The translations under genes were made by a program, and so were the position numbers. Below the pieces are notes generated by a model. The model made no database searches and was not told the DNA's origin. It saw only the letters and a list, made by a program, of their open reading frames with translations. Of a stretch of 32,000 nt of DNA, positions 8,024 through 31,772 are shown piece after piece (the first letter of the stretch is position 1; every line of letters begins with the position of its first letter). The DNA comes from Rhodocyclales bacterium (GTDB taxonomy: Bacteria > Pseudomonadota > Gammaproteobacteria > Burkholderiales > Rhodocyclaceae): assembly GCA_016192435.1 (NCBI GenBank), contig JACPUD010000082.1, positions 19,750 through 51,749 of the forward strand. Reading direction: 5' to 3'.

Positions 8024-8038
8024 TTTCATTTGCTGACC

Positions 8039-8938: not shown

Positions 8939-8974
8939 GAGAAACCTCTTGAAGACTATGGTTGATGGCTGCCG

Positions 8975-9012: not shown

Positions 9013-9033
9013 AATATTACAGCCTGGCCGTGC

Positions 9034-11061: not shown

Positions 11062-11083
11062 TTTTGGTTCCTCGATTGGTCAA

Positions 11084-11557: not shown

Positions 11558-11627
11558 TTGGTCTTACTCCTAGGTTACGGTGTTGATGATCAAAAAATGC
11601 ACGTGGAAAAGCTGGGGTTCTGATTCT

Positions 11628-12842: not shown

Positions 12843-12916
12843 GCCAAGCCTCCTCGAATAATGGTTATCGTTTGATAGCCGGCAGGTTAACAATTTCCCC
12901 TCCGCGCGCCAATGCG

Positions 12917-14868: not shown

Positions 14869-16181
14869 CGCTTGAAGAACAAAGGCAACTGATTCTCATA
14901 CAGGTGCACGACTATGCCGCGCAAAAGGAGCGGCATGCTGCGTTCGTGCCGGGACAAAGTGCCGTGCCCCCTGCCGGACGCGTGCTCGATGCGGAGGCCT
15001 ACGTCGCCATGGTCGATGCCGCGCTCGACGGCTGGCTGACCACCGGGCGCTTCAACGAAGAGTTCGAAAAGCAGATCGCCGCGCGCATCGGCGTCGCCCA
15101 TGCGCTGACGGTCAACTCGGGTTCCTCGGCCAATCTTCTGGCGCTTTCGGCGCTGACTTCGCCGCTGCTCGGCGAGCGCGCACTCAAGGCCGGCGATGAA
15201 GTGATTACCGCGGCCGCCGGCTTTCCGACCACGATCAACCCGATCCTGCAAAACGGCCTGGTGCCGGTCTTCGTCGACTCGTCCCTGCCCACTTACAACC
15301 CGAGTGTCGAAGCCATCGCCGCCGCCATCGGTCCGCGCACCCGCGCCATCATGCTGGCGCACGCCCTCGGCAATCCCTTCGAGGCCGCCGCGCTGCGTGA
15401 GTTGGCGGACCGCCACGGCCTGTGGCTGATCGAAGACTGCTGCGACGCCTTCGGCTCGACGCTGCACGGCCGCAGCGTCGGCAGTTTCGGCCATGTCGGC
15501 ACGCTGAGTTTCTACCCGGCGCACCACATCACCACCGGCGAAGGCGGCGCGGTATTCACCGGCGATCCGATCATCACCCGCGCCGTCGAATCCTTCCGCG
15601 ACTGGGGCCGCGACTGCTACTGCGCCCCCGGCAAGGACAACACCTGTGGCAAGCGTTTCGAATGGCAACTGGGCAACCTGCCCTGCGGCTATGACCACAA
15701 GTACACCTACGCCCACGCCGGCTACAACCTCAAGATCACCGACATGCAGGCCGCGCTCGGCGTCGCCCAACTGGCCCGCCTCGACGAATTCATCGCCGCG
15801 CGCAAGCGCAACTTCGCCTACCTGACCGCGCGCCTGAAGGCCTGCGAGGAATTCCTGATCCTGCCCGAGGCTACGCCCGACAGCGATCCTTCCTGGTTCG
15901 GCTTCCTGCTGACCCTGCGCGAGAACGCGCCCTGCGACCGGGTGAACCTGCTTCGCTATCTCGACCAGCACAAGATCGGCACGCGCTTGCTGTTCGCCGG
16001 CAACGTCACGCGCCAGCCCTACATGCAGGGCCGCAGCTACCGCGTCGCCGGAACACTGGCCAACGCCGATATCATCACCGAGCGCAGTTTCTGGATTGGC
16101 GTCTATCCGGGACTCAGCCGCGAAATGCTCGATTTCGCTGCAGACAAAATCAGCGAATTCCTCGGCGTCGGATTCGCATAG
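14865..16181 (+). CDS. rfbH: CDP-6-deoxy-L-threo-D-glycero-4-hexulose-3-dehydrase (E1; RfbH/DdhC), PMP and [2Fe-2S] enzyme
   Basis: It has the DegT/DnrJ/EryC1 fold. [14 protein letters not shown] carries His in place of the usual Schiff-base Lys. CCDAF...(57 residues)...[11 protein letters not shown] reproduces the E1 C-X57-C-X1-C-X7-C cluster motif when I count it. ATGA overlap with rfbG. Confidence 0.9.
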
Positions 16182-17212
16182 TGGCCAGCGTCCCCGTCGC
16201 CGACCTTGACCACATTCTGGCGCATACCGAAACGCTGTGGCGCAACTTGGCCAATGCGCGTCTGTTCATTACCGGCGGGACGGGATTCTTCGGCATCTGG
16301 CTGCTGGAAGCCATCGCCGCCGCCAACGACAGGCTCAATGTCGGCGTGGGTGCCACGGTACTGAGTCGGAACCCGGCGAGTTTCCTCGCGCGCATGCCGC
16401 ATCTGGCGAGCCGGTCCGAATTCGATTGGCTGACCGGACATCCGGCCAGCTTTCGTTTCCCGCAACAACAGCACGACTTTCTGCTGCACCTGGCCACCGC
16501 CACCAGCGCCCACGACGGACAGACCGATCCGGTCGAAATGCTGCAGACCAAGCTGACCGGGATTCGCCATGTCATCGACTATGCCCGGTACGCAGGCATT
16601 TCCCGCATGCTGGTGACCAGTTCCGGTGCAGTTTACGGGCCGCAACCGGCCGGTCTCAGCCATGTTCCGGAAACCTACGCTGGCGCACCCGACCCGACGC
16701 AAGCTGCCTCTGCCTATGGCCAAGGCAAGCGACTGGTGGAGCAGATCTGTGCCGCGACGCCCGAGATAGAGTGCGTGTTCGCCCGCTGCTTTTCCTTTGT
16801 CGGCCCACATCTGCCGCTGGATGCCCGTTTTGCCGCCGGTAACTTCCTGCACGATGCGCTGGCCGGCGGCCCCATAACAGTCGGCGGTGACGGCACGCCG
16901 TTGCGCAGTTATCTATACGCCGGCGACCTGATCCCTTGGCTGCTGCAGCTGCTGGTCAAAGGCCAGGCGCGGCGCGCCTACAACGTCGGCAGCGACCAGG
17001 CTGTAAGCATCGCGGAACTGGCCCATGCCGTCGCCAAGGCAGCAGGCGGTTGCGAGGTAGTTGTCAGGAAGGTGCCCGACGGAGGTCCTGTACAGCGCTA
17101 CGTACCTTCGATCGCCCGCGCCCGCGAGGAACTGGGACTGGACGTATGGACGCCGCTACCGGACGCACTGAACCGCACGCTTGACTGGGCGCGCCGGCAT
17201 GCTGCCGGTTAA
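16181..17212 (+). CDS. NAD-dependent epimerase/dehydratase-family SDR (extended SDR; CDP-sugar epimerase or 4-reductase candidate)
   Basis: LFITGGTGFFG (GxxGxxG) and YGQGK (YxxxK), 343 aa. The GTG start overlaps the rfbH TAG stop by 1 nt. Confidence 0.7.
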   Translation: MASVPVADLDHILAHTETLWRNLANARLFITGGTGFFGIWLLEAIAAANDRLNVGVGATVLSRNPASFLARMPHLASRSEFDWLTGHPASFRFPQQQHDFLLHLATATSAHDGQTDPVEMLQTKLTGIRHVIDYARYAGISRMLVTSSGAVYGPQPAGLSHVPETYAGAPDPTQAASAYGQGKRLVEQICAATPEIECVFARCFSFVGPHLPLDARFAAGNFLHDALAGGPITVGGDGTPLRSYLYAGDLIPWLLQLLVKGQARRAYNVGSDQAVSIAELAHAVAKAAGGCEVVVRKVPDGGPVQRYVPSIARAREELGLDVWTPLPDALNRTLDWARRHAAG

Positions 17213-17248
17213 AATGGCCGCACCCCGTCACAGAGGCCGACCAGCCAG

Positions 17249-19069
17249 GTGCAGACCATGAACGCCGCGCAACAAATCGCCGACTGGCTGGTCAGCCAGG
17301 GAATCGAGCAGGTATTTGCCGTGACCGGGGGCGGTTCCATGTTTCTCAATCATGCGCTGGCCAGCCACCCCGGCCTGCACTGCACCTTCATGCACCACGA
17401 ACAGGCCTGCGCCATGGCAGCCGAGGGATACGCCCGCATTTCCGGAAAACCGGCGGTAGTCAACGTCACCACCGGGCCCGGCGGAATCAATTCACTTAAC
17501 GGCGTCTACGGTGCCTTTACGGATTCCGTTCCGATGCTGGTGCTCTCGGGTCAGGTCAAGCGTGAAACCTGCCTGGACTTCGTTGCGGTGCCCGGCTTGC
17601 GCCAACTTGGCGACCAGGAGGGACCGGCCATCCACATGGCGCGCCACGTCACGAAATTCGCCGAAATAGCCCGCAGTGCGGAAGTACTCGCCTCACTGCT
17701 GCCGCAAGCGTTCGCCGCAGCCTGCCGGGGACGCCCGGGGCCGGCGTGGATCGATATCCCGCTCGATGTGCAGTCGGCGAAAACCCGACTCGACTTCATC
17801 GAGCTGCCCTCCGCCGAAACGCAGGATGAAGATCTCGCGACGCCCTGCGCCCATATCCTGGATCGACTGGAGCACGCGCATCGCCCGGTCATTCTCGCCG
17901 GCAGCGGCGTTCGCATCGGCGGCGCCGCCACGGCCCTGCTTGCCTTCGCCGAAGCGCACGGCATTCCGGTGGCCACGGCATGGAGCCACGATCTGATTGC
18001 CAGCGACCACCCCTTGTTTGCAGGCCGTCCGGGCACCATCGGCACGCGTGGCGGGAACTTCTGCCTGCAGGCGGCCGACGTCGTGCTGGTCGTCGGCTCG
18101 CGACTCAACATCCGCCAGGTCAGCTACAACTGGAAAAGCTTTGCCAAGAATGCATTTGTCGCTCAGGTCGACATCGACCCTGCAGAGCTGGCCAAACCAT
18201 TCGTCCGACCGCAACTTGCCGTGCGCGCCGATGCAAGGAATTTTCTTGCCGAGCTCACGGAACAGGCTAGTCAGCGGACACTTCCAAACTACTCGCCCTG
18301 GGCGCGGTGGTGTCGTGCCATCCGGGCCCGCTATCCGGTACTGCAGGCTGCGCAACGGCAGTCGCCCCAGCTCAATCCCTATTTCATCGTCGACCACATC
18401 TTCGGCCAGTTGCGCGACAGCGACGTCATCGTTTGCGGCAATGCCGCCGCCTGCATCGTGCCGTTCCAGACCGAGCGCTTGCGGGCGGGGCAACGCATGT
18501 TCAGCAATTCCGGTGCCGCCTCGATGGGTCACGACCTTCCCGCCGCGCTGGGCGCAGCCATGGCCGACCGCACACGACGGGTGATCTGCTTCGCCGGCGA
18601 CGGCAGCCTGCAGATGAACGTGCAGGAACTGCAGACCCTGAAGACCAGCGGCGCCAATGTAGTCGTCCTGGTTCTCGCCAACAACGGCTACCTGTCGATC
18701 CGCCAGACCCACGAGAACTTTTTTGGCAGTATCGTCGGCGCCACTCCCGAATCCGGCGTCGACCTCCCCGACTACTCCGCGCTGGCCGCTGCCTATGGCA
18801 TTTGCGCGACGCGACTGTCCTCTCATGGCGAGTTACCGAGCCTGAATGAATTCCTGGCACATGACGGCCCGGCGCTGGTGCATATCGACGTCGACCCGGC
18901 GCAGAACTTCGAGCCGCGACTGAAATCGCGGATCGCCGATGACGGAAGCTTTCTGACGCCGGAACTGGATGACATGTTTCCATTCCTGCCGGCAGAGGAA
19001 TTGGCCGCGGTGCGTGCCGAAGCCGCCGCAATCAGGGCCGTCGTCCCGCACCTGGAACCCGCGTCGTGA
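17249..19069 (+). CDS. Thiamine-diphosphate-dependent enzyme of the acetolactate-synthase large-subunit family (YerE-like branched-sugar C2-transferase candidate)
   Basis: N-terminal Pyr domain (VFAVTGGGSMFLNHAL, HEQACAMAAEGYAR, NVTTGPGGINSL). C-terminal ThDP motif GDGSLQMNVQELQT...VVLVLANNGY. The start is GTG 17249 or ATG 17258. Confidence 0.8.
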   Translation: MQTMNAAQQIADWLVSQGIEQVFAVTGGGSMFLNHALASHPGLHCTFMHHEQACAMAAEGYARISGKPAVVNVTTGPGGINSLNGVYGAFTDSVPMLVLSGQVKRETCLDFVAVPGLRQLGDQEGPAIHMARHVTKFAEIARSAEVLASLLPQAFAAACRGRPGPAWIDIPLDVQSAKTRLDFIELPSAETQDEDLATPCAHILDRLEHAHRPVILAGSGVRIGGAATALLAFAEAHGIPVATAWSHDLIASDHPLFAGRPGTIGTRGGNFCLQAADVVLVVGSRLNIRQVSYNWKSFAKNAFVAQVDIDPAELAKPFVRPQLAVRADARNFLAELTEQASQRTLPNYSPWARWCRAIRARYPVLQAAQRQSPQLNPYFIVDHIFGQLRDSDVIVCGNAAACIVPFQTERLRAGQRMFSNSGAASMGHDLPAALGAAMADRTRRVICFAGDGSLQMNVQELQTLKTSGANVVVLVLANNGYLSIRQTHENFFGSIVGATPESGVDLPDYSALAAAYGICATRLSSHGELPSLNEFLAHDGPALVHIDVDPAQNFEPRLKSRIADDGSFLTPELDDMFPFLPAEELAAVRAEAAAIRAVVPHLEPAS

Positions 19070-19824
19070 GCGCCCTGTTCGACATCTCCGGCCAAGTTGC
19101 CCTGGTGACCGGCGGACGACGCGGGCTCGGGCGTGCCATGGCGCTCGGAATGGCCGATGCCGGCGCAAGGGTCGCCGTGGTCGCGGCAAGCTCCGAAGCC
19201 TCGGATCTGCAGCGGGAACTTGCCGGTCGCGGCGTCGACTTCCTCTACATTCAGGCGGACCTGACCAGGCGCAATGAGCGTGAGGGACTGGTAAGCCGGG
19301 TTGTCGAGCATTTCGGCCGCCTCGACATCCTGGTCAACAATGCCGGTCTGCAGCAGAAGAGGTCGGCGGTCGACTACGCCACGGACGCCTGGGACGTCGA
19401 TATCGAACTTCTGCTCACTGCCGTACTCGACCTCAGCCAGCAGGCGGCGCGCCACATGATTCCCCAAGGGTACGGAAAGATCGTGCAGATTGCCTCGATC
19501 AGCAGCTTTCAGGGGGCACGCAACATCATCGGCTACTCGACAGCCAAGCATGGACTTGTCGGCTTGACCAAATGCCTCGCAAATGAATGGGCCGCGCTCG
19601 GGATCAATGTCAACGCCATCGCTCCCGGGATATTCGAAACCGACATGGCGGCACAAACCCTTGCTGATCCGATCAAGACGGCTGAACTCAAGGGACGCGT
19701 TCCCGCCGGACGCTTCGGCGCACCGGAGGATATCGTCGGCCCGCTGCTGTTCCTCGTCAGCAATGCCAGCCGGCATGTCCACGGGCACGTCCTGCTGGTC
19801 GACGGCGGCTGGATGGGACGCTAG
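19066..19824 (+). CDS. Classical SDR oxidoreductase (FabG/KduD-like; YerF-like reductase candidate)
   Basis: VALVTGGRRGLGRA, NNAG, S...YSTAKHG (YxxxK), 252 aa. The GTG start overlaps the upstream stop (GTGA). Confidence 0.8.
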   Translation: MSALFDISGQVALVTGGRRGLGRAMALGMADAGARVAVVAASSEASDLQRELAGRGVDFLYIQADLTRRNEREGLVSRVVEHFGRLDILVNNAGLQQKRSAVDYATDAWDVDIELLLTAVLDLSQQAARHMIPQGYGKIVQIASISSFQGARNIIGYSTAKHGLVGLTKCLANEWAALGINVNAIAPGIFETDMAAQTLADPIKTAELKGRVPAGRFGAPEDIVGPLLFLVSNASRHVHGHVLLVDGGWMGR

Positions 19825-19847
19825 ACGCGTCGCGAAGGGAAATTGAC

Positions 19848-20885
19848 TTGAACCCCAGCACGGACATGAACGGCGGCCAGAGGATCGAGGCCAAGGACTT
19901 GCGCTGCAAGGACAGGCAACCGCTGCAGGAAATCATCCCGCTGCCGACGCCGTTTGTCGTCTATATCGATCCGACCAACAAGTGCAACTTCCGTTGCGAG
20001 TTCTGTCCCACCGCCGACAAGGACCTGCTGCGAAAGGTCGGGCGGCCTGCCGCGACGATGAGCATGGACCTGTTCCGCAAGGCCGTCGATGACCTCAAGG
20101 CCTTCCCGCAGAAGCTCAAGCTGGCAAGCATCTACAAGGATGGCGAGCCGCTGATGAACAAGCATTTCCCCGACATGATCCGCTATCTGAAAGATGCCGA
20201 TGTGGCGGAGCGCATCTGGACCAAGACCAACGGTTCTGCGCTGTGTCCGGAACTCAACCAGCGCCTGATCGATTCAGGCCTTGATCTGATCTGCATTTCG
20301 GTGGAAGCGGTGTCGGCCAGCGGCTACTTGCGCGTGGCAAAGGCGCGCATCGACTACGACAAGTTTCGCGAGAACATCGCCGATCTCTACCAACGCCGGG
20401 GCAATTGCCAGATCTACATCAAGATCGCCGACAGCGGCTTTTCCAAAGTGGAAATCGACAAGTTCTATGCGGACTTCCAGCCGATGAGCACGCAAATCGC
20501 TGTCGAGAAGCTGATGGGCTGGTCCTATTCCGACATCAAGGACTTCACGCTGGGCACCAAACCCGATACCTACGATGGACTTCCGCTGATTGCAAAAAAA
20601 GTCTGTGCCTACCCGTTCTACGTCCTGGCCATCAATGCCGACGGCAGTGTGTCACTCTGCGGCAACGACTGGGCCCACGGCACCGTGGTCGGCAACATCA
20701 CGGAGCAGAGCCTGCACGAGATCTGGCACGGCGCGGCGCTGTACGAGTTCCGCAAGACCATGCTCGAAGGCCGCCGCAAGGAAATCCCGGTATGTGCAGA
20801 CTGCTACTACCTGCAAATCGTGCCGGACAACATCGACCCCCACAGCGCTGCGATCCTCAAGCAGTTGAAAGAGGTACGCGGATGA
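19848..20885 (+). CDS. Radical SAM protein with a SPASM/twitch-like C-terminal Cys region
   Basis: CNFRCEFC (CxxxCxxC) near the N-terminus, GEPL. C-terminal Cys residues: KKVCAYPF...DGSVSLCGNDW...IPVCADC. The start is TTG 19848 (AAGGGA 8 nt upstream) or ATG 19866. Confidence 0.78.
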   Translation: MNPSTDMNGGQRIEAKDLRCKDRQPLQEIIPLPTPFVVYIDPTNKCNFRCEFCPTADKDLLRKVGRPAATMSMDLFRKAVDDLKAFPQKLKLASIYKDGEPLMNKHFPDMIRYLKDADVAERIWTKTNGSALCPELNQRLIDSGLDLICISVEAVSASGYLRVAKARIDYDKFRENIADLYQRRGNCQIYIKIADSGFSKVEIDKFYADFQPMSTQIAVEKLMGWSYSDIKDFTLGTKPDTYDGLPLIAKKVCAYPFYVLAINADGSVSLCGNDWAHGTVVGNITEQSLHEIWHGAALYEFRKTMLEGRRKEIPVCADCYYLQIVPDNIDPHSAAILKQLKEVRG

Positions 20886-21865: not shown

Positions 21866-22954
21866 ATGAACCCGATTTTCGAGAATCTCTTCGTTCTGGA
21901 ACTTGCCAACAATCACTGGGGGCGCATCGACCGTGGCCTGAAGATAATCAACGACTTCGCCCAGGTAGTGAAGTTCAACAATGTGCGCGCCGCCATCAAG
22001 CTCCAGTTTCGTGACGTGGATAGTTTCGTCCATGATGATTACAAGGGTACCCAGACATCCCGCTACATCAGCAAAACCGAGGCGACGCGCCTTTCAAGAG
22101 CGGACCTGCGCACGCTGGCCCTGCGCATCAAGGAGCAGGCCTGCATACCGATGGCGACTCCTTTCGACGAAGCGTCGGTCGACCTCTGCGAAGAACTGGA
22201 TCTGCCGATCATCAAGATTGCCAGTTCCGACCTGAATGACTGGTTCCTCATTGAGCGCATCGCCCTCACCAAACGGCCGGTCATCGTCTCGACCGGCGGA
22301 TCCTCACTCAAAGATCTCGACGACCTGGTCAAGTTCTTCACCAATCGCAACATTCCGCTGGCCATCAATCATTGCGTCTCGATCTATCCGAGCGAGGACG
22401 GCGAACTGGAGCTCAACCAGATCGACTATCTGAAGCAGCGCTATCCGAACAATGTCATCGGTCTCTCCACGCACGAATATCACGACTGGCATTCGTCGAT
22501 GCTTTTGTCCTATGCGAAGGGCGCGCGCACCTGGGAGCGGCACATCGACATCGAGGAGGATGGCATTCCCGTATCGCCCTACTGTTCGCTGCCGCACCAG
22601 ATCGACGCATGGTTCAAGGCCTACCACAAGGCTGTTGAAATGTGCGGCGGTGAGGCGACGACCAAGCGCGTGCCCAGACCCAAGGAGGTTCAGTACCTCG
22701 ATGCACTGGTTCGAGGCGTTTACGCCAAGCGCGACTTGCCGGTCGGCTACGAGATTCATCACCGCAATCTGAACCGCGATTTCTATCTGGCGATTCCCTT
22801 GCTGAAGGGCCAGCTGTCATGCCGCGAGATCCTCAATGGACAGCAACTCGTCAACCCGGTTCAGCAGAACAAGCCGCTGATGATCGATGACATCGACAGC
22901 CCGTACGCCCGCAACCAAGCCCTCCGCGATCTGTACTACGAACGCGGACTGTAA
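21866..22954 (+). CDS. NeuB-family (sialic-acid-synthase-like, PEP-condensing) enzyme with a SAF-like C-terminus
   Basis: FVLELANNHWG corresponds to the IAEIGxNHxG motif. IPMATPFDEASVDLCEELDLPIIKIASSDL, RPVIVSTGGSSL, GLSTHE. The C-terminal region GVYAKRDLPVGYEI is SAF-like. There is no obvious SD sequence. Confidence 0.7.
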   Translation: MNPIFENLFVLELANNHWGRIDRGLKIINDFAQVVKFNNVRAAIKLQFRDVDSFVHDDYKGTQTSRYISKTEATRLSRADLRTLALRIKEQACIPMATPFDEASVDLCEELDLPIIKIASSDLNDWFLIERIALTKRPVIVSTGGSSLKDLDDLVKFFTNRNIPLAINHCVSIYPSEDGELELNQIDYLKQRYPNNVIGLSTHEYHDWHSSMLLSYAKGARTWERHIDIEEDGIPVSPYCSLPHQIDAWFKAYHKAVEMCGGEATTKRVPRPKEVQYLDALVRGVYAKRDLPVGYEIHHRNLNRDFYLAIPLLKGQLSCREILNGQQLVNPVQQNKPLMIDDIDSPYARNQALRDLYYERGL

Positions 22955-22982
22955 CGCTCTCGAATTGGGCAATCGGTCCTTG

Positions 22983-23366
22983 ATGAACGAACAAACCCGT
23001 TTCCTGCTGACGGGCGCCTACAACACCGCCTTTGGCTACGGGACATTTGTGGTGCTTTACCTGTACCTGCAGGATGTGCTGCACTACCTTGTGATCGCGA
23101 CGCTTGCTCATCTTATCGCCGTCGTAAATTCATTCCTGACCCAACGCAGCCTGGTATTCAGGGACGCCAGCCCCATAGTTCCTGCTTTCCTTCGCTTCAA
23201 CCTCGCCACAGCCGCGTCACTGATCCTTGGTCTCGCGGGCATGGCACTGCTGGTCGACGGTGCGGGTGTGGCCCCGCTGATCAGTCAGGCCATCGTGACC
23301 GTGATTTCGGTCATCGTTATGTATCTGACCCACAGAAACTACACGTTTCGCCGTCCAGGCCAATGA
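22983..23366 (+). CDS. GtrA-family small membrane protein (4 TM; polyprenyl-P-sugar translocation family)
   Basis: RFLLTGAYNTAFGYGTFVVL...LIAVVNSFLTQRSLVFR...THRNYTFR is the GtrA-like pattern, 127 aa from ATG 22983. The ORF-track start at 22887 overlaps the NeuB-like gene and adds non-hydrophobic residues. Confidence 0.7.
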   Translation: MNEQTRFLLTGAYNTAFGYGTFVVLYLYLQDVLHYLVIATLAHLIAVVNSFLTQRSLVFRDASPIVPAFLRFNLATAASLILGLAGMALLVDGAGVAPLISQAIVTVISVIVMYLTHRNYTFRRPGQ

Positions 23367-23563
23367 CCAACTGCCGCGCAGCTTTCGTTCCGGATGCGCC
23401 CATCATGCCTGCCGCCGGGTTGCGAACAATCTCGCTGATCGCCGGTCCGCCTCGCAAGCCAGTGGCGGTGATCAAGGTCCTCACGTGCTGCGCCGAACCC
23501 AGTCTTGGAATCCTTCCCCGGATAGACCATTCCAGGCTTGCCGACTACTTCAATCAGCCATGA
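23363..23563 (+). CDS. Candidate 66-aa coupling ORF between gtrA-like and the large transferase gene (unverified)
   Basis: Its start ATG overlaps the gtrA stop (ATGA at 23363-23366). Its stop overlaps ATG 23560 of the next gene (ATGA at 23560-23563). I counted about 69% G/C at third positions. No recognisable domain and no obvious RBS. Confidence 0.3.
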   Translation: MTNCRAAFVPDAPIMPAAGLRTISLIAGPPRKPVAVIKVLTCCAEPSLGILPRIDHSRLADYFNQP

Positions 23564-26500
23564 AGGCGCTGCCCCGACTTGGCACGATTCTGCCGCGCCT
23601 GTTCTATTTGCTGCTCTCCCTGTGGGCGGTACTCCTTCTGTTGCGGGGATCGCCATGGATAGGCGACACCGAGCGGGTACCGGACTTCAAGGGTCCCTTC
23701 ATGCAAGCCAGCCCGCGCCAGTATGGCGTGCTGCCGACGCGGATGAGTCGTGGCGACAAACTCGATATCGCCATGGAATTCCGCATCGAGCAGGAACTGA
23801 TGGAGCGCATGTCCGACCAAGGTCGACAATATGCCGGGCTGTTTCAGACGGCCAGCGGCGAACAGGGAGTACGCATAGAGATGGGGCTTGCCCCGACTCA
23901 ATACAACAACTGGGGAATCTCCATTGCCGGTCAGCACTTCGATCTGGGACGCGTCCCCGCTACCAACCGATGGCACAAACTGCGGCTTGTTGCAGCGAAT
24001 CGGTCGGCCACGCTGACCATCGATGGCATTCGACTCATCCGTCTCGACAATTACCCGGACAAGGTCCGGATCGACGTGGTACGCGCCGGTTATGGTTATT
24101 CGCCCGACCGGCTTTTCCCCGGCCAGATACGCGATTTTTCGGTCAGCCTGACGCCCTACGATGCGCTGGCCGACCAGGCCCAGAAAGTGGTTGTGAGCAT
24201 ACTGGCAGCCGTGCTCCTGCTCTGGCTGATCGCAGCCGTTCGCATCGGCCTCAAAAATGGCCGAAACCCGTTCGACTCCGTTCCCGTCAGGTGGCTGTCG
24301 GCGTTGGCATACCTGGGATGTTTCTTCTGGCTCAAGGGCCACTACACGACGGAAACTGGCCAGGAATTGCTGACCGACATTGCACTTGCTGCCGTGCTGC
24401 TGGTAAGCATCCAGGCAGCGCTGGATTTCCCGCCACGACAACTCATGCGCCAATTCATCGTCAGCTTTGCGATCGGATTGAATTACTGCACATTCGCCGT
24501 GCTGATGGCCGGCGCAAGCTATCTGCGGGGACGGGCAGACGGCACGGAGACCGGGCTCACGTATGACGAGATCGGCGTGCTGCACCAATCAAACGTCGCC
24601 GAAACCCTGGAATTTTTCCTGAGCAGCTTTTCCCTTTCCGAAAAGGCGGTAATTCTGCTCTTTCCGATTCTGCCGTCGCTCGCTCTGTACCTCCTCGCCC
24701 GCATCCGCCTTCCCCGCTGGAGTACAACCGGTTCTGCTGTGGTTGGAGTTTCGGGACTAATTGCCAGCCCCTTCCTGCTCTCGACGGACAGCGGCATCGC
24801 TGCGACGATTTATGGCGGCTGGCAAAGTTACTCCGACGTCGAGCGCAACTTCTCCAACTACCGCCAATTGCGATCGCAAGCGTCGACGCTTGAAGCTACA
24901 AAGCGCGAAACCGGCGAAACCTATGTGCTGGTGATCGGCGAGTCCGCCAACCGCGATCACTTTTCTGCCTACGGCTATTTTCGACCTACGACACCCTGGC
25001 TGAATCAGCAGCGCAAGAATCCGAACGACATTTTTTTCGAGAATGCCTATGCCAGCTATGTACACACGGTTCCGGCACTCATGCAGGCGCTTACGGCAGC
25101 CAACCAGTACACCCCGGGAAGCAGTCTTTCAAGCCCGACACTGATCGAAGTCTTCCGCGCCGCCGGCTTTCACACCATCTGGCTCAGCGAGCAAACCATG
25201 AGTTGGGCCGACACGCCGCTGCACACCTTGGCGGCCGAGGCATCGCAGATAATTCAAGTGAGATCCCCGGGAAAAATCCTGCCGAAGTTTCGCGAGACTC
25301 TGCAATTCCTGGACCGGACGCGGAACAATTTGGTGATCGTGCACATGATGGGATCGCATGCCGACTACCGCAACCGCTATCCGCCCGACTATGCATCCAA
25401 TTTTTCACGCGCGCCAGAAGACCTTGGTGATCACGCCCAGGCGAGCGAGTTTCTCGACAGGTTTCTCGACCCCTATGACCGGTCCATTCACTATACCGAC
25501 CACCAACTGGCCGAAATGGATGCCGCACTCAGCGCCGCGCAGTTCGACAAATATGCTTTCATCTTTGTCGCTGATCACGGCGAAGATGTTTTTGGCCAGC
25601 GCTTCCACAACGCAGCGAACTTCAGTTTCCCGATGACACGCATCCCCCTGTTCATGCGCTTTTCTGCTGACTGGGTCGAGCACAATCGCACGAAGCACAG
25701 CCAGTTGCAGCAGCGCAGGAGCAGCATTTTCACGCTGGATCTACTTTTCGACACGATGGTCGGCCTGGCCGGCATCCGGACGCGGGCGTCCTCCGCGGGA
25801 TTCGATCTCGGTCACTCGCGCTACATGTTGAACGAGGAAATTGCCCTTACGATGCGGCCACCCCCGGATTCACTCTCCGGGGTTTACACAAATGTTGTCG
25901 AACGATCGATTCGCGATGACCCGCAGCGGATTGCCCAAGACAATCTGCGTTTTCTCAATCGGGAATTTCCGGGGCGGTTTCTTGCCAACTGGGCCGACAG
26001 CCTGGCGCGCGCCAGCGAAGCCGACGCTCTTGGATTTGCCGGCCTCGAGGTAAATGTGGGCGTACCCTCGATGCACATCGGTCATTACCCGGAAATCGTT
26101 CATGCCCGAACGCTGGAGCAATATCTTGCGTTGCCCGTGGTGCGCAACAAGCACAAGCTGTGGCTCGACCTCAAGCTTGAATCCGGGCGCGCCGTGAACG
26201 AATCCCTGGCGGCCATGGAATCACTCGACAGGCGATACAAGCTGAAGGCTCACGCAATCATAGAATCCCCTGAGCACGGCCTCGCTGCATTCGCCGCGCG
26301 AGGCTGGCACACCAGCTATTACTTTATTCCCGAAAGGTGGCCTGGCTGCCTTGACGACGAGAAATCACGCCGCCAGTGCGCCAGAGACCTGGTGCTTGTC
26401 GTAAAGGAACAGAAACTTGGCGCCGTAAGCTTCGATGCACGCTACTACTCCTTCATCGACCGCTATGTCGCGCCTCTGCTACCTCCGACCGTGGCGTTCC

Positions 26501-26679
26501 ACACGTTTGGCGCCGACCTGCCATCGATTTTCGCGCCGGATTTCCGCGAAAAGCTTCTGGCACGCAGCGAAGTGCGGGATCGACGAATCAAGACAATCTT
26601 GCTGGAGGGATCGCAAACATTCCATGAGGGAAGGAAAGTTTTCCGGACGCCCGGCGATAACGGCGCCAGGGCTTTTTGA
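23560..26679 (+). CDS. Multi-domain inner-membrane protein: N-terminal anchor, LamG/ConA-like jelly-roll domain, ~6 TM helices, phosphoethanolamine-transferase (sulfatase/alkaline-phosphatase superfamily, EptA/OpgE-like) domain and a ~250-aa extra C-terminal domain
   Basis: The transferase motifs align to EptA/MCR-1 landmarks: VLVIGESANRDH (metal Glu), YVHTVPALM (nucleophile Thr, codon 25066-25068), VHMMGSHADYRNRYP, YDRSIHYTD, FVADHGE. Hydrophobic segments lie at about 24181-24780. The start was chosen at ATG 23560 (MKALPRLGTILPRLFYLLLSLWAVLLLL). The alternative is GTG 23485, as in the ORF track. Confidence 0.75.
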   Translation: MKALPRLGTILPRLFYLLLSLWAVLLLLRGSPWIGDTERVPDFKGPFMQASPRQYGVLPTRMSRGDKLDIAMEFRIEQELMERMSDQGRQYAGLFQTASGEQGVRIEMGLAPTQYNNWGISIAGQHFDLGRVPATNRWHKLRLVAANRSATLTIDGIRLIRLDNYPDKVRIDVVRAGYGYSPDRLFPGQIRDFSVSLTPYDALADQAQKVVVSILAAVLLLWLIAAVRIGLKNGRNPFDSVPVRWLSALAYLGCFFWLKGHYTTETGQELLTDIALAAVLLVSIQAALDFPPRQLMRQFIVSFAIGLNYCTFAVLMAGASYLRGRADGTETGLTYDEIGVLHQSNVAETLEFFLSSFSLSEKAVILLFPILPSLALYLLARIRLPRWSTTGSAVVGVSGLIASPFLLSTDSGIAATIYGGWQSYSDVERNFSNYRQLRSQASTLEATKRETGETYVLVIGESANRDHFSAYGYFRPTTPWLNQQRKNPNDIFFENAYASYVHTVPALMQALTAANQYTPGSSLSSPTLIEVFRAAGFHTIWLSEQTMSWADTPLHTLAAEASQIIQVRSPGKILPKFRETLQFLDRTRNNLVIVHMMGSHADYRNRYPPDYASNFSRAPEDLGDHAQASEFLDRFLDPYDRSIHYTDHQLAEMDAALSAAQFDKYAFIFVADHGEDVFGQRFHNAANFSFPMTRIPLFMRFSADWVEHNRTKHSQLQQRRSSIFTLDLLFDTMVGLAGIRTRASSAGFDLGHSRYMLNEEIALTMRPPPDSLSGVYTNVVERSIRDDPQRIAQDNLRFLNREFPGRFLANWADSLARASEADALGFAGLEVNVGVPSMHIGHYPEIVHARTLEQYLALPVVRNKHKLWLDLKLESGRAVNESLAAMESLDRRYKLKAHAIIESPEHGLAAFAARGWHTSYYFIPERWPGCLDDEKSRRQCARDLVLVVKEQKLGAVSFDARYYSFIDRYVAPLLPPTVAFHTFGADLPSIFAPDFREKLLARSEVRDRRIKTILLEGSQTFHEGRKVFRTPGDNGARAF

Positions 26680-28043
26680 TTCACACCTTTTGCGTCCCAC
26701 CTCAGATGACCACTGCCCGCTCTCAACCGCATTCAGACAGTCAAGACCCGTCCTTGCATGCACGCACATTCCTCGGCATGTTGCTTGCCGTCGGCGTGCT
26801 GACTATAGCGAACCTGCTTTTTCACGGTATGCACTTCGGCATGGACCTGTATCGCGGGCGCTGGTGCGAGGACGCCTATCTGTTCTTTCCCGGCCCGCTG
26901 TTTCATGCCGAAGACAGGTTCATGGACTATTTCAACATGCAGCATTTCATGCCCGAGTACGGGCAGACATCGGCATTGCCGCCCAGCCTGATCCTGCTCT
27001 ATGGCATCGCCAGCCTGATCACCCGCGCGACTTCGCCGGGCGTTTCGATTGTGATTTTCTCCCTGTTTCAGTTCGGTCTGTTCGCCTACTCAATCGCCAG
27101 GCTGATGGGCAGTCTGCCTGGCGCAGTGTCTTGGAGCATGACGATACGGCTTGCATTTGCCCTGGCCCTGTGTCTGATTTCATATCCCGTCATTTTTGCC
27201 ATCGACCGCGGCAATTTTGCGCTGACGGTATGCAGCATGATTTCCCTCGGAATCGCGGCTCACCTTCGCGGCGAGCGCTGGCAAGCCGCCGCGTGGATCG
27301 GCATCGCAGCCGCACTTCGCATCACGCCGCTGGTATTCGCCGTGGCATACCTCGGCAAAAAGGACTTCCGCTACCTGCTCACCGCGGTTGTCGTGGCCAT
27401 GAGTGCAACAGGAATTGCCATCCATCCGGCCTCCCTTATATTCGAGGGCTATTCGTTGCAGACCTGGATCGACGGATTCGACGGTCACAGCTTCATGTAC
27501 ACGACCTGGCCCAACGGACTCGGCTGGAGTTCGTCGCTTTACAATCTGGTGAGGTTCATCAGGTACCTGGACGGCATCCCGCTTGACACGATCCTTGAGT
27601 CCGCCTATCGGGCGGAGCGACTCTATTCGATGGTCTGCGCCGGGCTGTTGGGCCTGCTGGCATGGAAGCTTCACCGCACCAACGCCGTAACCGGCTTCAC
27701 TTTGCTTTCCCTGGCCTTTGTTGCGCTGCCCCATGTCACTGGCGACTACTATCTGGCCACCTTGATCGCACCTCTCGTAATGATCGCCGGCCAGAGCCGA
27801 ATCGACTACCCGTCGCTAATGCTGCTGATCCTGCTGCTGGTGCCAAAGGACTATTTCTATTACTACTTCCACATCCACAAGTTCAGTGACATCAAGGTCC
27901 ACGACTTCGTCGAATATGTCGACCTGCTCATCATCGGATACAAACCGTCGAGCATACAGTCACTCGTCATCAATCCGATATTGTTGATCTGGCTGGGCGT
28001 GCGGATGTACCTCAAGCCTCCCCCAGAAGCCGCCCAGGCCTAG
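26676..28043 (+). CDS. Polytopic membrane protein, DUF2029/GT87-like (GT-C fold glycosyltransferase candidate)
   Basis: About 10 or more hydrophobic helices. The first loop carries acidic/aromatic motifs (MDLYRG...EDRFMDYF...ALPPSLILLYG) resembling the D..Y...YPP pattern of polyprenyl-P-sugar-dependent GT87/DUF2029 proteins. The TTG start overlaps the upstream TGA (TTGA); ATG 26706 is the alternative. Confidence 0.5.
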   Translation: MIHTFCVPPQMTTARSQPHSDSQDPSLHARTFLGMLLAVGVLTIANLLFHGMHFGMDLYRGRWCEDAYLFFPGPLFHAEDRFMDYFNMQHFMPEYGQTSALPPSLILLYGIASLITRATSPGVSIVIFSLFQFGLFAYSIARLMGSLPGAVSWSMTIRLAFALALCLISYPVIFAIDRGNFALTVCSMISLGIAAHLRGERWQAAAWIGIAAALRITPLVFAVAYLGKKDFRYLLTAVVVAMSATGIAIHPASLIFEGYSLQTWIDGFDGHSFMYTTWPNGLGWSSSLYNLVRFIRYLDGIPLDTILESAYRAERLYSMVCAGLLGLLAWKLHRTNAVTGFTLLSLAFVALPHVTGDYYLATLIAPLVMIAGQSRIDYPSLMLLILLLVPKDYFYYYFHIHKFSDIKVHDFVEYVDLLIIGYKPSSIQSLVINPILLIWLGVRMYLKPPPEAAQA

Positions 28044-28053: not shown

Positions 28054-30279
28054 ATGAAGTCAAGCTCCGACCTTACGTCAGCAAGCGGGCCGCACGAGAC
28101 AGTGGGGACCCATGCCGCTATCGGCGCGCAGCATCTCGAAGGTGGCCGCCTTGAAGAGGCGGAAGCCAGCTACCACAAGGCACTGGAGATCGATCCGGAC
28201 TTTGCCGAAGCCCATTTCAAGCTGGGCAATATCGCGATGAAGCGCCGGTCGCCGGCAGCCGCGGAAGCTGCCTATCGCCGTGCCGTCAGCGCCGACTCCT
28301 GCCACTTCAAGGCCTTCTACAACCTCGGCAATCTGCTCCGGCTACAAGCGCGCCTCGGGGAAGCGGAGACCTGCTATCGGCGCGTGATCGCCATCGAACC
28401 CGGCTACAGCGATGCACACGTGAACCTTGGCGTCACTCTCCAGGACCAGGGACGCCATGCCGAGGCAGAGGCCAGCTACCGTGCTGCCTTGCAACTCGAG
28501 CCGAACGACGCCGATGCGCTCAACAACCTGAGCCTGTCGCTCAAGGACCAGGAACGGCACGGCGAGGCGGAAGTGTGCTGCCGTCGGGCACTGCAACTGG
28601 CGCCGCGCAATGCGCTGGCCTGGAACAACCTCGGCATCATCCTGAAGGAACTGGGGCGTCTCGCCGAAGCCGAAGCAAGCTATCGCAAGGCACTGGAACT
28701 GGCACCGAACTATGCCGAAGCATTGAACAATCTCGGCGTCACGCTCAAAGCGCAGGGACGACTCGCCGAATCCGAAGCAGCGCTTCGCCGGGCGATCGAG
28801 ATCAGGCCGGCCTACGCCAATGCCTGCAACAATCTCGGTGCCACCCTGTCGCTGCAGGGACGGCATGCCGAAGCGGAAGTGCTTTATCGACAGGTACTGG
28901 AGTTTGACGCCAATAACGCGCAGACCTGGAACAGCCTGGGAGGCGCACTGGCCGGCCAGGGGCGCCCGGCAGAGGCGATTGCCGGCTTTCGCCGAGCCCT
29001 TGAAATCGATCCGGATCTGCTTGCCGCGCATAGCAATCTGCTGTTCACCCTGAACTACAGCGGCAGGCACGACAGTTCCGACCTGGTCGAGGAAGCGCGC
29101 CGGTATGGCCGGGCCGTCAGCCGCAGGGTGACATCCAGATATACGGCCTGGATATCTCCGGCAGCACCCCGGCTCCTTCGCATCGGGCTGGTATCGGCCG
29201 ATCTCAGAAATCATCCGGTCGGATTCTTTCTCGAAGGTTTGCTGGCACATATCGACACGTCACGCATCGAGCTGACCGCCTATCCGACCGGGCGCACGGA
29301 AGATGCGGTGACGGTGCGCATGCGCAAGCATTTCGCCGCCTGGAAACCGATCGCCGATCTGAGCGACGAAGCCGCAGCGCAACTGATCCACTCCGATGGA
29401 ATCCACGTCCTGATCGACCTTGCCGGACACACCACCGACAACCGGCTACCCGTGTTCGGCTGGAAACCCGCGCCCGTGCAAGCCACCTGGCTGGGCTACT
29501 TCGCCACCACGGGCGTCGCCGAAATCGATTACCTCCTAGCTACCGGCACCGAGATTCCGGACACACATCGCGGCCGGTTCACCGAATCGATCTGGTACCT
29601 ACCCGACACCAGGCTGTGTTTCAGCGTACCTCAGTCCAGCATTCCCGTTACCGGACTGCCCGCGCTGCGCAGGGGCTGGATAAACTTCGGCTGCTTCCAG
29701 AATCTGTCGAAGGTGGGCGATGAGGTGCTCGCCACATGGGCCCAAATTCTCGCGGCCCTGCCGGATGCACGACTGCGCTTCCAATGTCCGCAGCTCGCCA
29801 CGCCAGGCTCGCGGCAACAGCTGGCTGCGCGCCTGCAGCAACGCGGCATAACTCCGGGGCGAGTGACGATGCTCGGCGCGGTCGACCGGGAATCCTATCT
29901 GGCGGCGCATGCCGAGGTGGATGTGATTCTTGACACCTTTCCCTACCCGGGCGGCACGACAACCTGCGAGGCCTTGTGGATGGGCGTGCCGACCCTGACC
30001 CTGGCCGGCGAAAGCATGCTTGAACGACAGGGCGCCAGCTTTCTGACCATCGCCGGGCTGACGGACTGGATTGCATCCAGCCGGGCCGAGTACGTCGAAA
30101 ATGCACTTGCCGTCGCCAGGGACCTGGAGTCCTTGGCCCATTTGCGCTCGATCCTGCGCCAACAAGTGCTGGCTTCCCCACTGTTCGATGCGCCGCGCTT
30201 TGCCCGCAACCTGGAGCAGGCGCTGTGGCAGATGTGGCAAGGGTATTTGCCAAACCATCGCGCCGAGAACGGCACTTGA
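28054..30279 (+). CDS. TPR-repeat protein fused to a SPINDLY/OGT-like (COG3914, GT41-like) glycosyltransferase domain
   Basis: About 9 tandem 34-aa TPR units (AEASYRKALELAPNYAEALNNLGVTLKAQGRL and similar). The C-terminal half is LRIGLVSADLRNHPVGFF...DLAGHT...WLGYFATTG...DTFPYPGGTTTCEALWMGVPTLTL, as in bacterial SPY-family transferases. Confidence 0.78.
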   Translation: MKSSSDLTSASGPHETVGTHAAIGAQHLEGGRLEEAEASYHKALEIDPDFAEAHFKLGNIAMKRRSPAAAEAAYRRAVSADSCHFKAFYNLGNLLRLQARLGEAETCYRRVIAIEPGYSDAHVNLGVTLQDQGRHAEAEASYRAALQLEPNDADALNNLSLSLKDQERHGEAEVCCRRALQLAPRNALAWNNLGIILKELGRLAEAEASYRKALELAPNYAEALNNLGVTLKAQGRLAESEAALRRAIEIRPAYANACNNLGATLSLQGRHAEAEVLYRQVLEFDANNAQTWNSLGGALAGQGRPAEAIAGFRRALEIDPDLLAAHSNLLFTLNYSGRHDSSDLVEEARRYGRAVSRRVTSRYTAWISPAAPRLLRIGLVSADLRNHPVGFFLEGLLAHIDTSRIELTAYPTGRTEDAVTVRMRKHFAAWKPIADLSDEAAAQLIHSDGIHVLIDLAGHTTDNRLPVFGWKPAPVQATWLGYFATTGVAEIDYLLATGTEIPDTHRGRFTESIWYLPDTRLCFSVPQSSIPVTGLPALRRGWINFGCFQNLSKVGDEVLATWAQILAALPDARLRFQCPQLATPGSRQQLAARLQQRGITPGRVTMLGAVDRESYLAAHAEVDVILDTFPYPGGTTTCEALWMGVPTLTLAGESMLERQGASFLTIAGLTDWIASSRAEYVENALAVARDLESLAHLRSILRQQVLASPLFDAPRFARNLEQALWQMWQGYLPNHRAENGT

Positions 30280-31772
30280 ATACGGCGACCCGCCATGACT
30301 GGACTCGTCACCCGATCGACGGCCTGACGGTCCTTGGCTTCGCCTACATCGCCTTACCCAACCTGATCTTCATGTTCGGCTGGTTGCGCTGGCCGGTCGC
30401 GCTGGTACTATGCGCCGCCCTGCTGCACCTGCTGTTTCGAGCTCTGGCGGTGCGACCGATTGCCTGGCACTGGAAATACTCTCGCGCCACCACGCTTGTG
30501 CTCCTCGCTAGCGCAGTCGCCTGGGCAGCATTTGGCGGCGGCAGCCACTTCATGTATGCCAACCCCGACTGGGATGTTCGCGATGCCGTGCTCGGCGATC
30601 TGATATTCGCCGATTGGCCGGTGCACTATCTGTCGGCTGACGGCGCCCGGCTCGTCCTCCGTTCGGCGATCGGCTATTTTCTGCCGCCGGCGATGTTTGG
30701 TCGCATTTTCGGCACTGCGCATGTCGATATCGCGGTCTACCTCTGGACCGCGACGGGAGTGCTGATCTTTCTCGCACTACTGCCTTTGCCACGGCATGCC
30801 GGCTGGCGCCTGGCATTGGGCCTGTGGCTTGCAGTGTTTTTCAGCGGCATGGATTTCGTCGGTCAATTGATCGCCACCGAGTCGCTGCCGCAATTTCCGC
30901 TCAGGCTCGAGTGGTGGGTTCCGTTGAGCTACCCGTCGCTGGCCAACCAGCTTCTTTGGGCGCCCAATCACAGCCTGCCGCTATGGATGGGCACCCTGCT
31001 CGTCTTGCGCCATCTGCACAGCCCGGATTTCCTGCGCATGGCTGCGGCATTGCTGCCGCTGACGCTGATATGGACGCCGTTCGCCGCGCTGGGGCTGGCG
31101 CCCTTCTGTCTGCTGGGCGCCGTCAAGGCCGTCCGCCAGTCCGGCTGGCGCTGCATTCCGTACGATTCGGTGGTTTCGGCTGCGATTTTCTCCGCACCCC
31201 TGATCATGTTCCTGCTGCTGGATGCCGGACGGATACATGCCGGCATCGCCACCAATGTAGCGGACGGAGTACCCAGTTACACGCTGCAGGCGGCGTCCCT
31301 GCATTCCTATCTATTGTTCATCGCCTGCGAATTCCTCTTCCTGGCCCTGGTACTGGCTCCGCATGTTCGACAATCGCGGGACGTCTTTGGCCTTGCGCTA
31401 CTGATTCTTGTCGGTCTGCCCCTGCTCCGCTTCGGTCCGTCCAATGACGTGCTGCTGCGACTGTCCGCGCCGCCACTGATCGTTTTGCTGGTGGTCTGCC
31501 TGCAGACCCTGCTCGATCCGGGCCGCCAGCAGACCCGCTCGACACTGCTGCTAGCCTGGCTGTTCCTGGCCATCGGAGCCCATACCGCCTTCAACGAGTT
31601 CTGGCGTGCCGCCACCTACACTCGAGCGCCAGCGGACTACCGCCACACCCTGGCTGAGAAGCAGGACGGGAGGCCTGCGGCGCACTATGCGGCACAGATC
31701 GGCACATCGGCCGCAGGCATATGGCTCAAGCCCCTGGCCAGGCCCGCCAGCGACACACAACGAAATCCATAG
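30276..31772 (+). CDS. Polytopic integral membrane protein of unknown family (about 12 TM; possible glycan polymerase/ligase/GT-C-like)
   Basis: Strongly hydrophobic throughout, with loop motifs NPDWDVRDAVLGDL and LLWAPNHSLPLWMG. The start is proposed at TTG 30276, overlapping the upstream TGA (TTGA). The ORF-track ATG 30225 would overlap the TPR gene by 55 nt. Confidence 0.55.
   Translation: MNTATRHDWTRHPIDGLTVLGFAYIALPNLIFMFGWLRWPVALVLCAALLHLLFRALAVRPIAWHWKYSRATTLVLLASAVAWAAFGGGSHFMYANPDWDVRDAVLGDLIFADWPVHYLSADGARLVLRSAIGYFLPPAMFGRIFGTAHVDIAVYLWTATGVLIFLALLPLPRHAGWRLALGLWLAVFFSGMDFVGQLIATESLPQFPLRLEWWVPLSYPSLANQLLWAPNHSLPLWMGTLLVLRHLHSPDFLRMAAALLPLTLIWTPFAALGLAPFCLLGAVKAVRQSGWRCIPYDSVVSAAIFSAPLIMFLLLDAGRIHAGIATNVADGVPSYTLQAASLHSYLLFIACEFLFLALVLAPHVRQSRDVFGLALLILVGLPLLRFGPSNDVLLRLSAPPLIVLLVVCLQTLLDPGRQQTRSTLLLAWLFLAIGAHTAFNEFWRAATYTRAPADYRHTLAEKQDGRPAAHYAAQIGTSAAGIWLKPLARPASDTQRNP

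Follow-up and report, generated by a model that had tools for sequence, protein, structure and literature searches.

Why would an inner-membrane enzyme of the phosphoethanolamine (PEtN) transferase type carry a lectin-like domain near one end and a phosphodiesterase-like barrel at the other, and what would such a protein leave on its target? The question is raised by a gene at 23560–26679 (forward strand, as are all of its parts described below) of a 32,000 nt stretch of Rhodocyclales DNA (GenBank assembly GCA_016192435.1, contig JACPUD010000082.1, positions 19,750 to 51,749), referred to here as the window. PEtN-type transferases, to which the MCR colistin-resistance enzymes belong, remodel lipid A, lipopolysaccharide core, O-antigen, cellulose and periplasmic glucans. 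The transferase core of the present protein is ordinary; the main new element is its C-terminal part, a member of an unnamed domain family of the glycerophosphodiester phosphodiesterase (GDPD) superfamily that is systematically partnered with PEtN-type transferases. Also new are the separate clade, home to the LamG-bearing proteins, in which the active site of this domain is remodelled, and a link to a gene requirement in capsule synthesis that had lacked an explanation. The most likely function is that of a periplasmic glycan phospho-modifying enzyme, in which the barrel would remodel or bind the phosphodiester made by the transferase. This explanation, taken jointly with a predicted architecture of seven transmembrane (TM) helices, N-terminus in and C-terminus out, with three globular modules all in the periplasm, is given a probability of about one half.

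Architecture of the fusion protein

The open reading frame (ORF) runs uninterrupted from ATG 23560 to the stop codon at 26677–26679 and encodes 1039 aa. The longest frame opens at GTG 23485; the start was set at ATG 23560 because the two closest homologues (P0001 and P0002, at 99 % and 87 % identity, the 87 % homologue being a protein of a Sulfuritalea metagenome-assembled genome, MAG) are each 1039 aa long and each begin with MKALPRLG. No clear Shine-Dalgarno sequence was seen by eye upstream of this ATG. Eight full-length homologues (P0001–P0008) were recovered in the homologue search at 34–99 % identity to the 1039 aa protein, and a related-locus search with a narrow alignment returned three loci, from the Sulfuritalea MAG and two Succinivibrionaceae. 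The sole Pfam match over the whole protein is Sulfatase (PF00884, aa 454–739, E 5.6e-37, 128 bits against a cut-off of 25), which leaves approximately 440 N-terminal and 295 C-terminal residues without curated-model coverage; neither flank of the transferase domain is matched by any Pfam or NCBIfam model at its gathering or curated cut-off. Both flanking regions are real conserved domains. A chance ORF is ruled out by the conservation of both flanks in the full-length homologues and by 713 clusters bearing the C-terminal domain, and an assembly or gene-fusion chimera by the eight full-length homologues on independent contigs and by the approximately 23 representative clusters that share the architecture.

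An earlier note, made from the letters of the window, had described an unusual tri-domain fusion of about 1039 aa, with flanking domains at approximately 23668–24150 and 25882–26604. The ORF and all four named parts are present, the peptide strings it quoted occur in the translation, and the domains were found at 23665–24156 and 25921–26625. Neither flank proved to be an already catalogued extension in Pfam or NCBIfam, and structure prediction followed by Foldseek returned both the lectin-like and the TIM-barrel fold that had been proposed. The four-part architecture is rare without being unique, occurring in approximately 23 representative clusters, and the transferase–barrel fusion is found in more than 100.

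Homology identifies the helix bundle together with the sulfatase-fold domain (aa 441–744, 24880–25791) as a predicted phospho-alcohol transferase of the EptC/CptA branch. Structural-sequence matches are to Escherichia coli EptC (PDB 5zzu, E 1.5e-31), Campylobacter jejuni EptC, Neisseria meningitidis EptA and MCR-1/2. Among NCBIfam models CptA/EptC ranks best, followed by the EptA, EptB and MCR families, all far under their curated cut-offs (171.6 bits against 404 for the CptA model NF007933; 147.2 against 900 for NF012179). The protein is therefore not an EptC orthologue, given how far the CptA score falls below its cut-off. Glu461 (within GES), Thr503, His600, Asp672-His673 and His683 align with conserved positions of EptC 5zzu, and Thr503 (codon 25066–25068), the predicted catalytic nucleophile, aligns with the Thr of the conserved S..YT motif in that protein. 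The six residues are kept in almost all of 119 domain-bearing relatives, with most exceptions being alignment gaps; Thr occupies position 503 in 102, and 15 of the 17 remaining sequences have a gap there. Thus the earlier reading of intact catalytic landmarks, including the Thr codon, was correct. A Thr nucleophile without a Cys/Ser-x-Pro-x-Arg motif is a hallmark of phospho-alcohol transferases and not of sulfatases. A true sulfatase is ruled out here: the nucleophile is a Thr, in H-T-x-P, the Cys/Ser-x-Pro-x-Arg motif is missing and all named matches are PEtN transferases.

With EptC/CptA and the EptA/MCR/OpgE family the protein shares an N-terminal helix bundle, a periplasmic sulfatase-fold domain and the Glu/Thr/His/Asp-His/His set. 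It differs from EptC/CptA, which are approximately 550–580 aa long, by its 1039 aa, by a LamG-like insert with an additional N-terminal TM helix on either side, and by the 295 aa C-terminal extension. The first TM helix (aa 7–30, 23578–23649), an N-in anchor ahead of the lectin-like domain, is marked by a hydropathy peak of 2.22, by a modelled helix over the same residues and by the basic N-terminus MKALPR. The helix bundle that follows the lectin-like domain (aa 202–440, 24163–24879) is predicted from AlphaFold and hydropathy to hold six TM helices, a pair of short helices on the periplasmic side and, at 413–440, a long connector helix. Structures were predicted separately for aa 1–448 and aa 745–1039; the former model, built on a 14-sequence alignment, has a mean pLDDT (predicted local distance difference test) of 77.5 and places helices at 202–232, 241–259, 267–289, 294–326, 359–381, 386–406 and 413–440. 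The motif FDEIGxxxQSNxxExxEFF, conserved more strongly than any other in this region, lies in the short helices at 335–356, and positions 52–531 of the CptA NCBIfam model align to aa 285–740. Lys/Arg-rich loops at 232–240, 289–294 and 381–386, read from the sequence, match the positive-inside rule together with the basic N-terminus. This pattern fits an N-in, seven-TM topology, by which the beta domain, like all residues beyond aa 406, would be periplasmic.

The domain between the first and second TM helices (aa 36–199, 23665–24156) is predicted to be a periplasmic jelly-roll of the LamG/ConA type, with approximately 11 strands and a core pLDDT of 80–90. Foldseek comparison of the aa 1–448 model with the PDB gave 326 matches at E≤1e-3, and the best 50 are all jelly-rolls (LamG/neurexin LNS, CRP/pentraxin, SHBG, laminin LG5, agrin, BoNT Hc-N and glycosidase-associated ConA-like domains; E approximately 1e-5). 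At the profile level the domain matches laminin LG (E 1.4e-4), SHBG and neurexin sequences in the PDB. Laminin_G_3 (PF13385) gives a sub-threshold match in seven of seven aligned family members, with a best E of 1.6e-4, and the domain of the present protein scores 18 bits against a gathering score of 27.6. The LamG-like identity is thus confirmed at the level of the modelled fold, not at the level of the Pfam threshold, and the ConA/LamG jelly-roll suggested earlier stands on the same three lines of comparison. With LamG, LNS, pentraxin and ConA lectins the domain shares the jelly-roll, a ‘W-H-x-L ... L-x-(V/L)-D-G’ pattern and a terminal ‘F-x-G-x-I’; unlike them, it sits between two TM helices of a membrane enzyme and remains under the Pfam gathering score. 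Two relatives of 1253–1257 aa (P0021 and P0028) carry two tandem LamG-like copies before the helix bundle.

The C-terminal barrel family and its transferase partners

A conserved linker (aa 745–787, 25792–25920; pLDDT 61–77; conserved D749, Y755, A762, M765, Y776 and DP787-788) connects the transferase domain to a predicted (beta/alpha)8 barrel of GDPD/SMaseD/Menorin-like type (aa 788–1022, 25921–26625), where SMaseD denotes sphingomyelinase D. The AlphaFold model of aa 745–1039, built on a 30-sequence alignment, has a pLDDT of 90.3, a pTM (predicted template modelling score) of 0.85 and eight strand–helix units. Its best Foldseek matches are GDPDs (1o1z, 7e2a, 3ks6, 3no3, 3qvq and 2pz0; E 4e-6 to 2e-4, TM-score up to 0.59), followed by spider SMaseD/phospholipase D (PLD) structures (4q6x, 9die, 1xx1 and 4rw3) and Arcanobacterium PLD 9yd8. 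GDPDs or SMaseDs make up 17 of the 19 top matches, with generic TIM barrels ranking after them. When the barrel profile was compared with PDB sequences, PLD 9yd8, GDPD 2pz0 and Loxosceles/Sicarius SMaseD came first, weakly (E 0.045–1.2), with alignments that pass through the H-R/M-V-N, E-x-D, (G)H-D and W-x-D-x-K motifs. Weak Pfam matches recur among the relatives, to Menorin (PF10223) in 4 of 30 and 2 of 17 and to PI-PLC-X (PF00388) in 3 of 17, with best E values of 7e-4 and 0.014, respectively. The barrel of the present protein has no Pfam or NCBIfam match even at E≤10, and thus none to Pfam GDPD.

Taken together, the model and the motif-level matches place the barrel in the PLC-like/GDPD phosphodiesterase superfamily, as a divergent branch that has no name and whose motifs are nearest to those of the SMaseD/PLD/Menorin type. 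GDPDs (TM1621 1o1z, GlpQ/UgpQ type) are its best structural neighbours, and 2pz0 aligns over the ExD–GHD region; GDPDs have an HRG/PENT motif, which this barrel does not. SMaseD/PLD enzymes (Loxosceles, Sicarius, Corynebacterium and Arcanobacterium) share with relatives of the barrel the (beta/alpha)8 fold and similarly spaced H-x-V-N, E-x-D, (G)H and D-x-K motifs. They are secreted toxins, in contrast to a barrel that is joined to a PEtN-type transferase or has its gene next to one, and the identity of approximately 10–15 % places the likeness at superfamily level only. Menorin/FAM151 and PI-PLC-X are the only Pfam families that repeatedly match relatives of the domain, and the present barrel itself matches neither. 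A GDPD/PLC-like TIM barrel without the HRG motif, as the earlier note had it, agrees with the modelled barrel, with its GDPD/SMaseD neighbours and with N810-W811 at the His site.

When a seven-sequence profile of the C-terminal domain was run exhaustively with HMMER against 1.84 billion representatives, it recovered 713 representative clusters at E≤1e-3, 324 of them at E≤1e-10; a word-index search with the alignment of the domain added one protein. Pooling the searches gave 161 proteins, mostly top matches to the C-terminal domain. Among these, 76 are plain transferase–barrel fusions, approximately 40 more are fusions with extra detected parts, and 40 are barrels alone, some of them fragments. 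At their N-termini, complete standalone barrels have a signal peptide, a lipobox or a TM anchor, which indicates that they are exported and agrees with a periplasmic place for the fused barrel. In three of four metagenomic contexts of standalone barrels (L006, L008 and L009) the barrel gene has beside it, or close by, a Sulfatase-family gene of the size typical for a PEtN transferase; no Sulfatase-family gene is near the barrel in the fourth (L010).

Split pairs are found on a plasmid and on a chromid as well. On Acinetobacter baumannii plasmid NZ_CP053221.1 a barrel gene (barrel profile E 1e-36) starts 28 nt after an annotated phosphoethanolamine transferase gene. The pair lies at 3393–5675 of this 9.6 kb plasmid from a clinical isolate; the transferase (WP_179993847.1) is 497 aa long, the barrel protein (WP_179993834.1, ‘hypothetical protein’) is of the His-Arg type defined below, and an IS5 transposase gene is next to it. 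The arrangement is possibly a mobile two-gene cassette. Likewise, at 4097–6639 of a locus from the Vibrio sp. THAF191d chromid, overlapping ORFs encode a 560 aa PEtN-transferase-like protein and a 293 aa membrane-anchored barrel. This Vibrio barrel mixes two active-site states, with HRTN and ExD but YHYPE. A shortened relative of 459 aa (P0014, at 2696–4075 of locus L011) retains the barrel and a portion of the transferase domain; its neighbours are APS kinase, CysD/CysN-like genes and an O-antigen ABC transporter (Wzm/Wzt). This could be a pseudogene, or else a shorter form of the enzyme in a locus for sulfated or methylated glycan.

A comparable pair has been described in Shewanella vesiculosa HM13, where HM3344, described as the phosphoethanolamine transferase OpgE, and HM3345, a ‘PI-PLC/GDPD-like’ hypothetical protein, are encoded adjacently (PMC6971210, PMC13597727). 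Both are predicted inner-membrane proteins and both are needed for the capsule, which is without PEtN (PMC6971210, PMC13597727). The layout resembles that of the A. baumannii plasmid and the Vibrio chromid; unlike the protein studied here, the Shewanella system has no LamG module and no fusion. The literature search found no paper pairing ‘PLC-like phosphodiesterase’ with ‘phosphoethanolamine transferase’.

Active-site states and proposed function

Does the barrel catalyse a reaction? A motif census of approximately 156 barrel domains separated two principal states. The His-Arg type (87 sequences; 69 transferase–barrel fusions and 18 standalone barrels) has H-R-x-N, E-x-D, G-H-D, D-x-K, E, S-F-D and H-T. 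The no-His type (51 sequences) includes the present protein and all 23 LamG-bearing proteins, and has V, N, I, L or D at the His site. In the present barrel the His of GDPD HRG or of HxVN, which follows strand 1, is not there, and N810-W811 occupy its position; the conserved polar residues are D813, E830, N832, H842, D870, K872, E902, S957, D1007 and R1009. We take the equivalents in SMaseD 1xx1 to be His12 for N810, Glu32 for E830, Asp34 for N832, His47 for H842 and Asp91/Lys93 for D870/K872. Thus the first His of SMaseD corresponds to Asn810 and the Asp of ExD to Asn832; H842, D870 and K872, which stand for the second catalytic His and the D/E-x-K motif of strand 3, align with the His and DIK of PLD 9yd8.

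The changes are correlated. In 44 of the no-His sequences there is a reciprocal switch, with Asp rather than Asn at 813 and Asn rather than Asp at 832, the His-Arg type having N813 and D832. At the ExD metal-binding site of the present barrel, on strand 2, E830 is retained, and the N-to-D change at 813 may compensate for N832. D813, E830, N832, H842, D870, K872, E902, S957-F958 and D1007/R1009 are near-invariant across the 51 no-His sequences, which are drawn from 50 %-identity representatives; this points to continuing selection on the site. In a neighbour-joining tree the 44 switched sequences fall outside the smallest clade that holds all His-type sequences, and the remaining seven lie within it as scattered losses; for the most part the change thus goes back to a single ancient event and has been kept ever since. 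Additionally, a Cys930/Cys940 pair, kept in most close homologues, fits an oxidizing compartment and supports the periplasmic topology. The pocket in this clade looks rebuilt rather than decayed, and is probably still a metal-dependent phosphodiester-binding site with altered, possibly single-step, chemistry.

It could instead be a pseudo-enzyme that binds a phosphorylated ligand (a lipid headgroup or phospho-glycan) or serves as a scaffold, the whole protein then being a plain EptC-like PEtN transferase whose PEtN is kept. The His-Arg dyad of the 87 relatives is gone, the site is variable and the ExD metal ligand has become ExN, as would be expected of such a protein. Additionally, the Menorin/FAM151 papers found all concern animals, and in them Menorin, the nearest Pfam family, is treated as a component of an adhesion complex and not as an enzyme. 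At least 10 polar strand-end positions are nevertheless near-invariant across the 50 %-identity representatives, the second His is kept, as are the DxK motif and E902, and the reciprocal switch again suggests rebuilding. A non-catalytic barrel is for these reasons considered rather unlikely, yet it is the alternative that deserves most weight.

The steps of the proposed function can be outlined. In EptA, MCR-1 and EptC a metal-activated Thr takes the phospho-headgroup from a membrane glycerophospholipid, and diacylglycerol is released. Thr503, similarly activated by metal, would take the headgroup and release diacylglycerol in the same manner, with phosphatidylethanolamine as the most likely candidate donor, and would pass the headgroup on to a hydroxyl or phosphate of the acceptor. 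That Thr503 would in this way move a phospho-alcohol from a membrane phospholipid onto an acceptor in the periplasm is a well-supported reading. A candidate acceptor, from the conserved gene context, is an envelope glycan built or decorated by the neighbouring GT2, GtrA, GT87 and unannotated polytopic membrane protein set (GT, glycosyltransferase). The acceptor is plausibly the glycan of this neighbouring GT-C system, and the LamG-like module would hold it. The barrel might then act on the fresh phosphodiester, either releasing the headgroup alcohol and leaving a phosphomonoester or cyclic phosphate, or trans-esterifying; in the clade of the present protein this chemistry may have been modified by loss of the first His. 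A role of the barrel in handling the product of the transferase is suggested by the recurrence of both fusion and gene adjacency. The earlier proposal that the enzyme decorates or edits a glycan with a phospho-substituent is strengthened by the conserved context and the split pairs, but is still an inference.

Several observations weigh against this explanation. TM-scores of the barrel to GDPDs are 0.4–0.6 with generic TIM barrels close behind, and its sequence-level PDB and Pfam matches are all above conventional significance. Some fused homologues occur in unrelated gene contexts. The likeness of HM3345 to the barrel family comes from its published description, and the link is circumstantial. 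Finally, with N810 in place of His12 and N832 in place of the metal ligand Asp34, the barrel of the present protein may not catalyse anything.

A different headgroup is a further alternative. The transferase could move phosphoglycerol from phosphatidylglycerol instead of PEtN, as OpgB, LtaS and GacH do, and the barrel could trim or relocate phosphoglycerol on the glycan. Sulfatase-fold Thr transferases do include phosphoglycerol transferases, in fold the barrel comes nearest to glycerophosphodiester phosphodiesterases, and the Shewanella capsule that requires both homologues contains no PEtN. All named matches of the transferase domain, however, are PEtN transferases (CptA, EptA, EptB and MCR) with no LtaS or OpgB model among them, and the barrel motifs (HxVN, ExD and DxK) are nearest to headgroup-releasing SMaseD/PLD and not to the classical GDPD HRG/PENT, so that phosphoglycerol transfer appears improbable. 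A lipid-directed barrel, supplying or clearing substrates or by-products of the transferase such as lysophospholipids, by analogy with dgkA/pap2 genes found with mcr/ept, would suit the action of SMaseD/PLD relatives on lyso- and sphingophospholipids (descriptions of PDB 4q6x, 9die and 1xx1), the membrane-anchored or lipoprotein nature of standalone barrels and the compact A. baumannii unit beside an IS5 transposase gene, but is very improbable, since PEtN transfer yields diacylglycerol and no phosphodiester for GDPD-like cleavage and since the barrel, fused to the distal side of the periplasmic domain, is remote from the membrane in the linear order of the parts.

The preferred explanation, a periplasmic glycan phospho-modifying enzyme, can be extended to the family as a whole. 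By analogy among the fused proteins and the split pairs (A. baumannii, Vibrio and probably Shewanella HM13), transferase–barrel modules could represent an unrecognized two-step periplasmic system, in which the transferase would install a phospho-alcohol on a glycan and the barrel would expel the alcohol or trans-esterify. This generalization is a speculative one and, as it stands, unlikely. Were it true, the net result would be ATP-independent phosphorylation, a cyclic phosphate, or phosphodiester cross-linking or anchoring of envelope polysaccharides, and it would explain why PEtN-transferase homologues are needed for PEtN-free polysaccharides.

If the barrel is a phosphodiesterase partner, some members of the PEtN-transferase family do more than leave PEtN behind on a target. 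A testable reason is thereby offered for the unexplained dependence of Shewanella capsule synthesis on an OpgE-like gene together with a GDPD-like one, and proteins automatically annotated as ‘EptC’ or ‘sulfatase-like’ that carry the barrel probably yield a different product. The domain family defined here comprises at least 713 clusters, with one member on a plasmid of clinical A. baumannii. Mostly it is joined to the C-terminal end of the transferase domain, in hundreds of lineages, and in others its gene is a neighbour of the transferase gene.

Genomic neighbourhood of the gene

Genes flanking the transferase–barrel gene include several linked to glycan assembly. A GtrA-family gene (22887–23366, forward strand; PF04138, E 8e-18) lies upstream and is also beside the homologues in loci L001 and L002. 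Downstream is a membrane glycosyltransferase gene of the GT87 family (GT-C type; 26676–28043, forward strand; PF09594, E 4e-18), with neighbours 53–56 % identical in the same two loci. Its first possible start (TTG 26676) overlaps, within 26676–26679, the TGA stop of the transferase–barrel gene, which suggests translational coupling. Beyond GT87 are a protein with tetratricopeptide repeats (TPR) and a GT41 domain, and a 515 aa polytopic membrane protein without a Pfam match. The latter, found beside GT87 at 30225–31772 of the window, 12807–14090 of L001 and 6579–8189 of L002 (427–536 aa), is 41–53 % identical across the three loci and is a core member of the module. Large TPR proteins fused to a GT41 (OGT-like) domain accompany the module at 28054–30279 of the window and at 14121–18470 of L001.

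Upstream, 13028–20885 encodes a nucleotidyltransferase, a 4,6-dehydratase, a 438 aa DegT-family enzyme, an epimerase/reductase, a thiamine pyrophosphate (TPP)-dependent enzyme, a short-chain dehydrogenase/reductase and a radical-SAM/SPASM protein, a set that presumably resembles branched-chain 3,6-dideoxyhexose routes such as that to yersiniose. GT2, a NeuB-like protein and GtrA are encoded between these nucleotide-sugar genes and the transferase–barrel gene. The loci of P0007 (42 % identity, L001) and P0004 (54 %, L002) keep GtrA, GT87 and the unannotated membrane protein, but their sugar-synthesis genes differ; L001 also keeps GT2 and the TPR-GT41 protein, and the shorter L002 contig shows neither. 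In L001, dehydroquinate-synthase-like, TPP and HpcH-aldolase genes are found in place of the sugar set at 13028–20885. Where periplasmic glycosylation draws on polyprenyl-phosphate sugars, GtrA, GT2 and GT-C proteins are the standard combination, so that this enzyme most likely belongs to a module that decorates a glycan in the periplasm.

Further upstream, at 2852–12893, is a cluster of the dissimilatory sulfur-oxidation type. It comprises QmoA-like (2852–4138) and QmoB-like (4141–6384, with an MvhD/FlpD domain) genes, genes for Fer4 and CCG HdrBC-like proteins (6407–7956) and, on the reverse strand, genes for an AprA-like FAD protein (9034–11061) and ATP sulfurylase (11628–12893). An ATP sulfurylase gene is also located upstream of the homologous glycan locus in L001.

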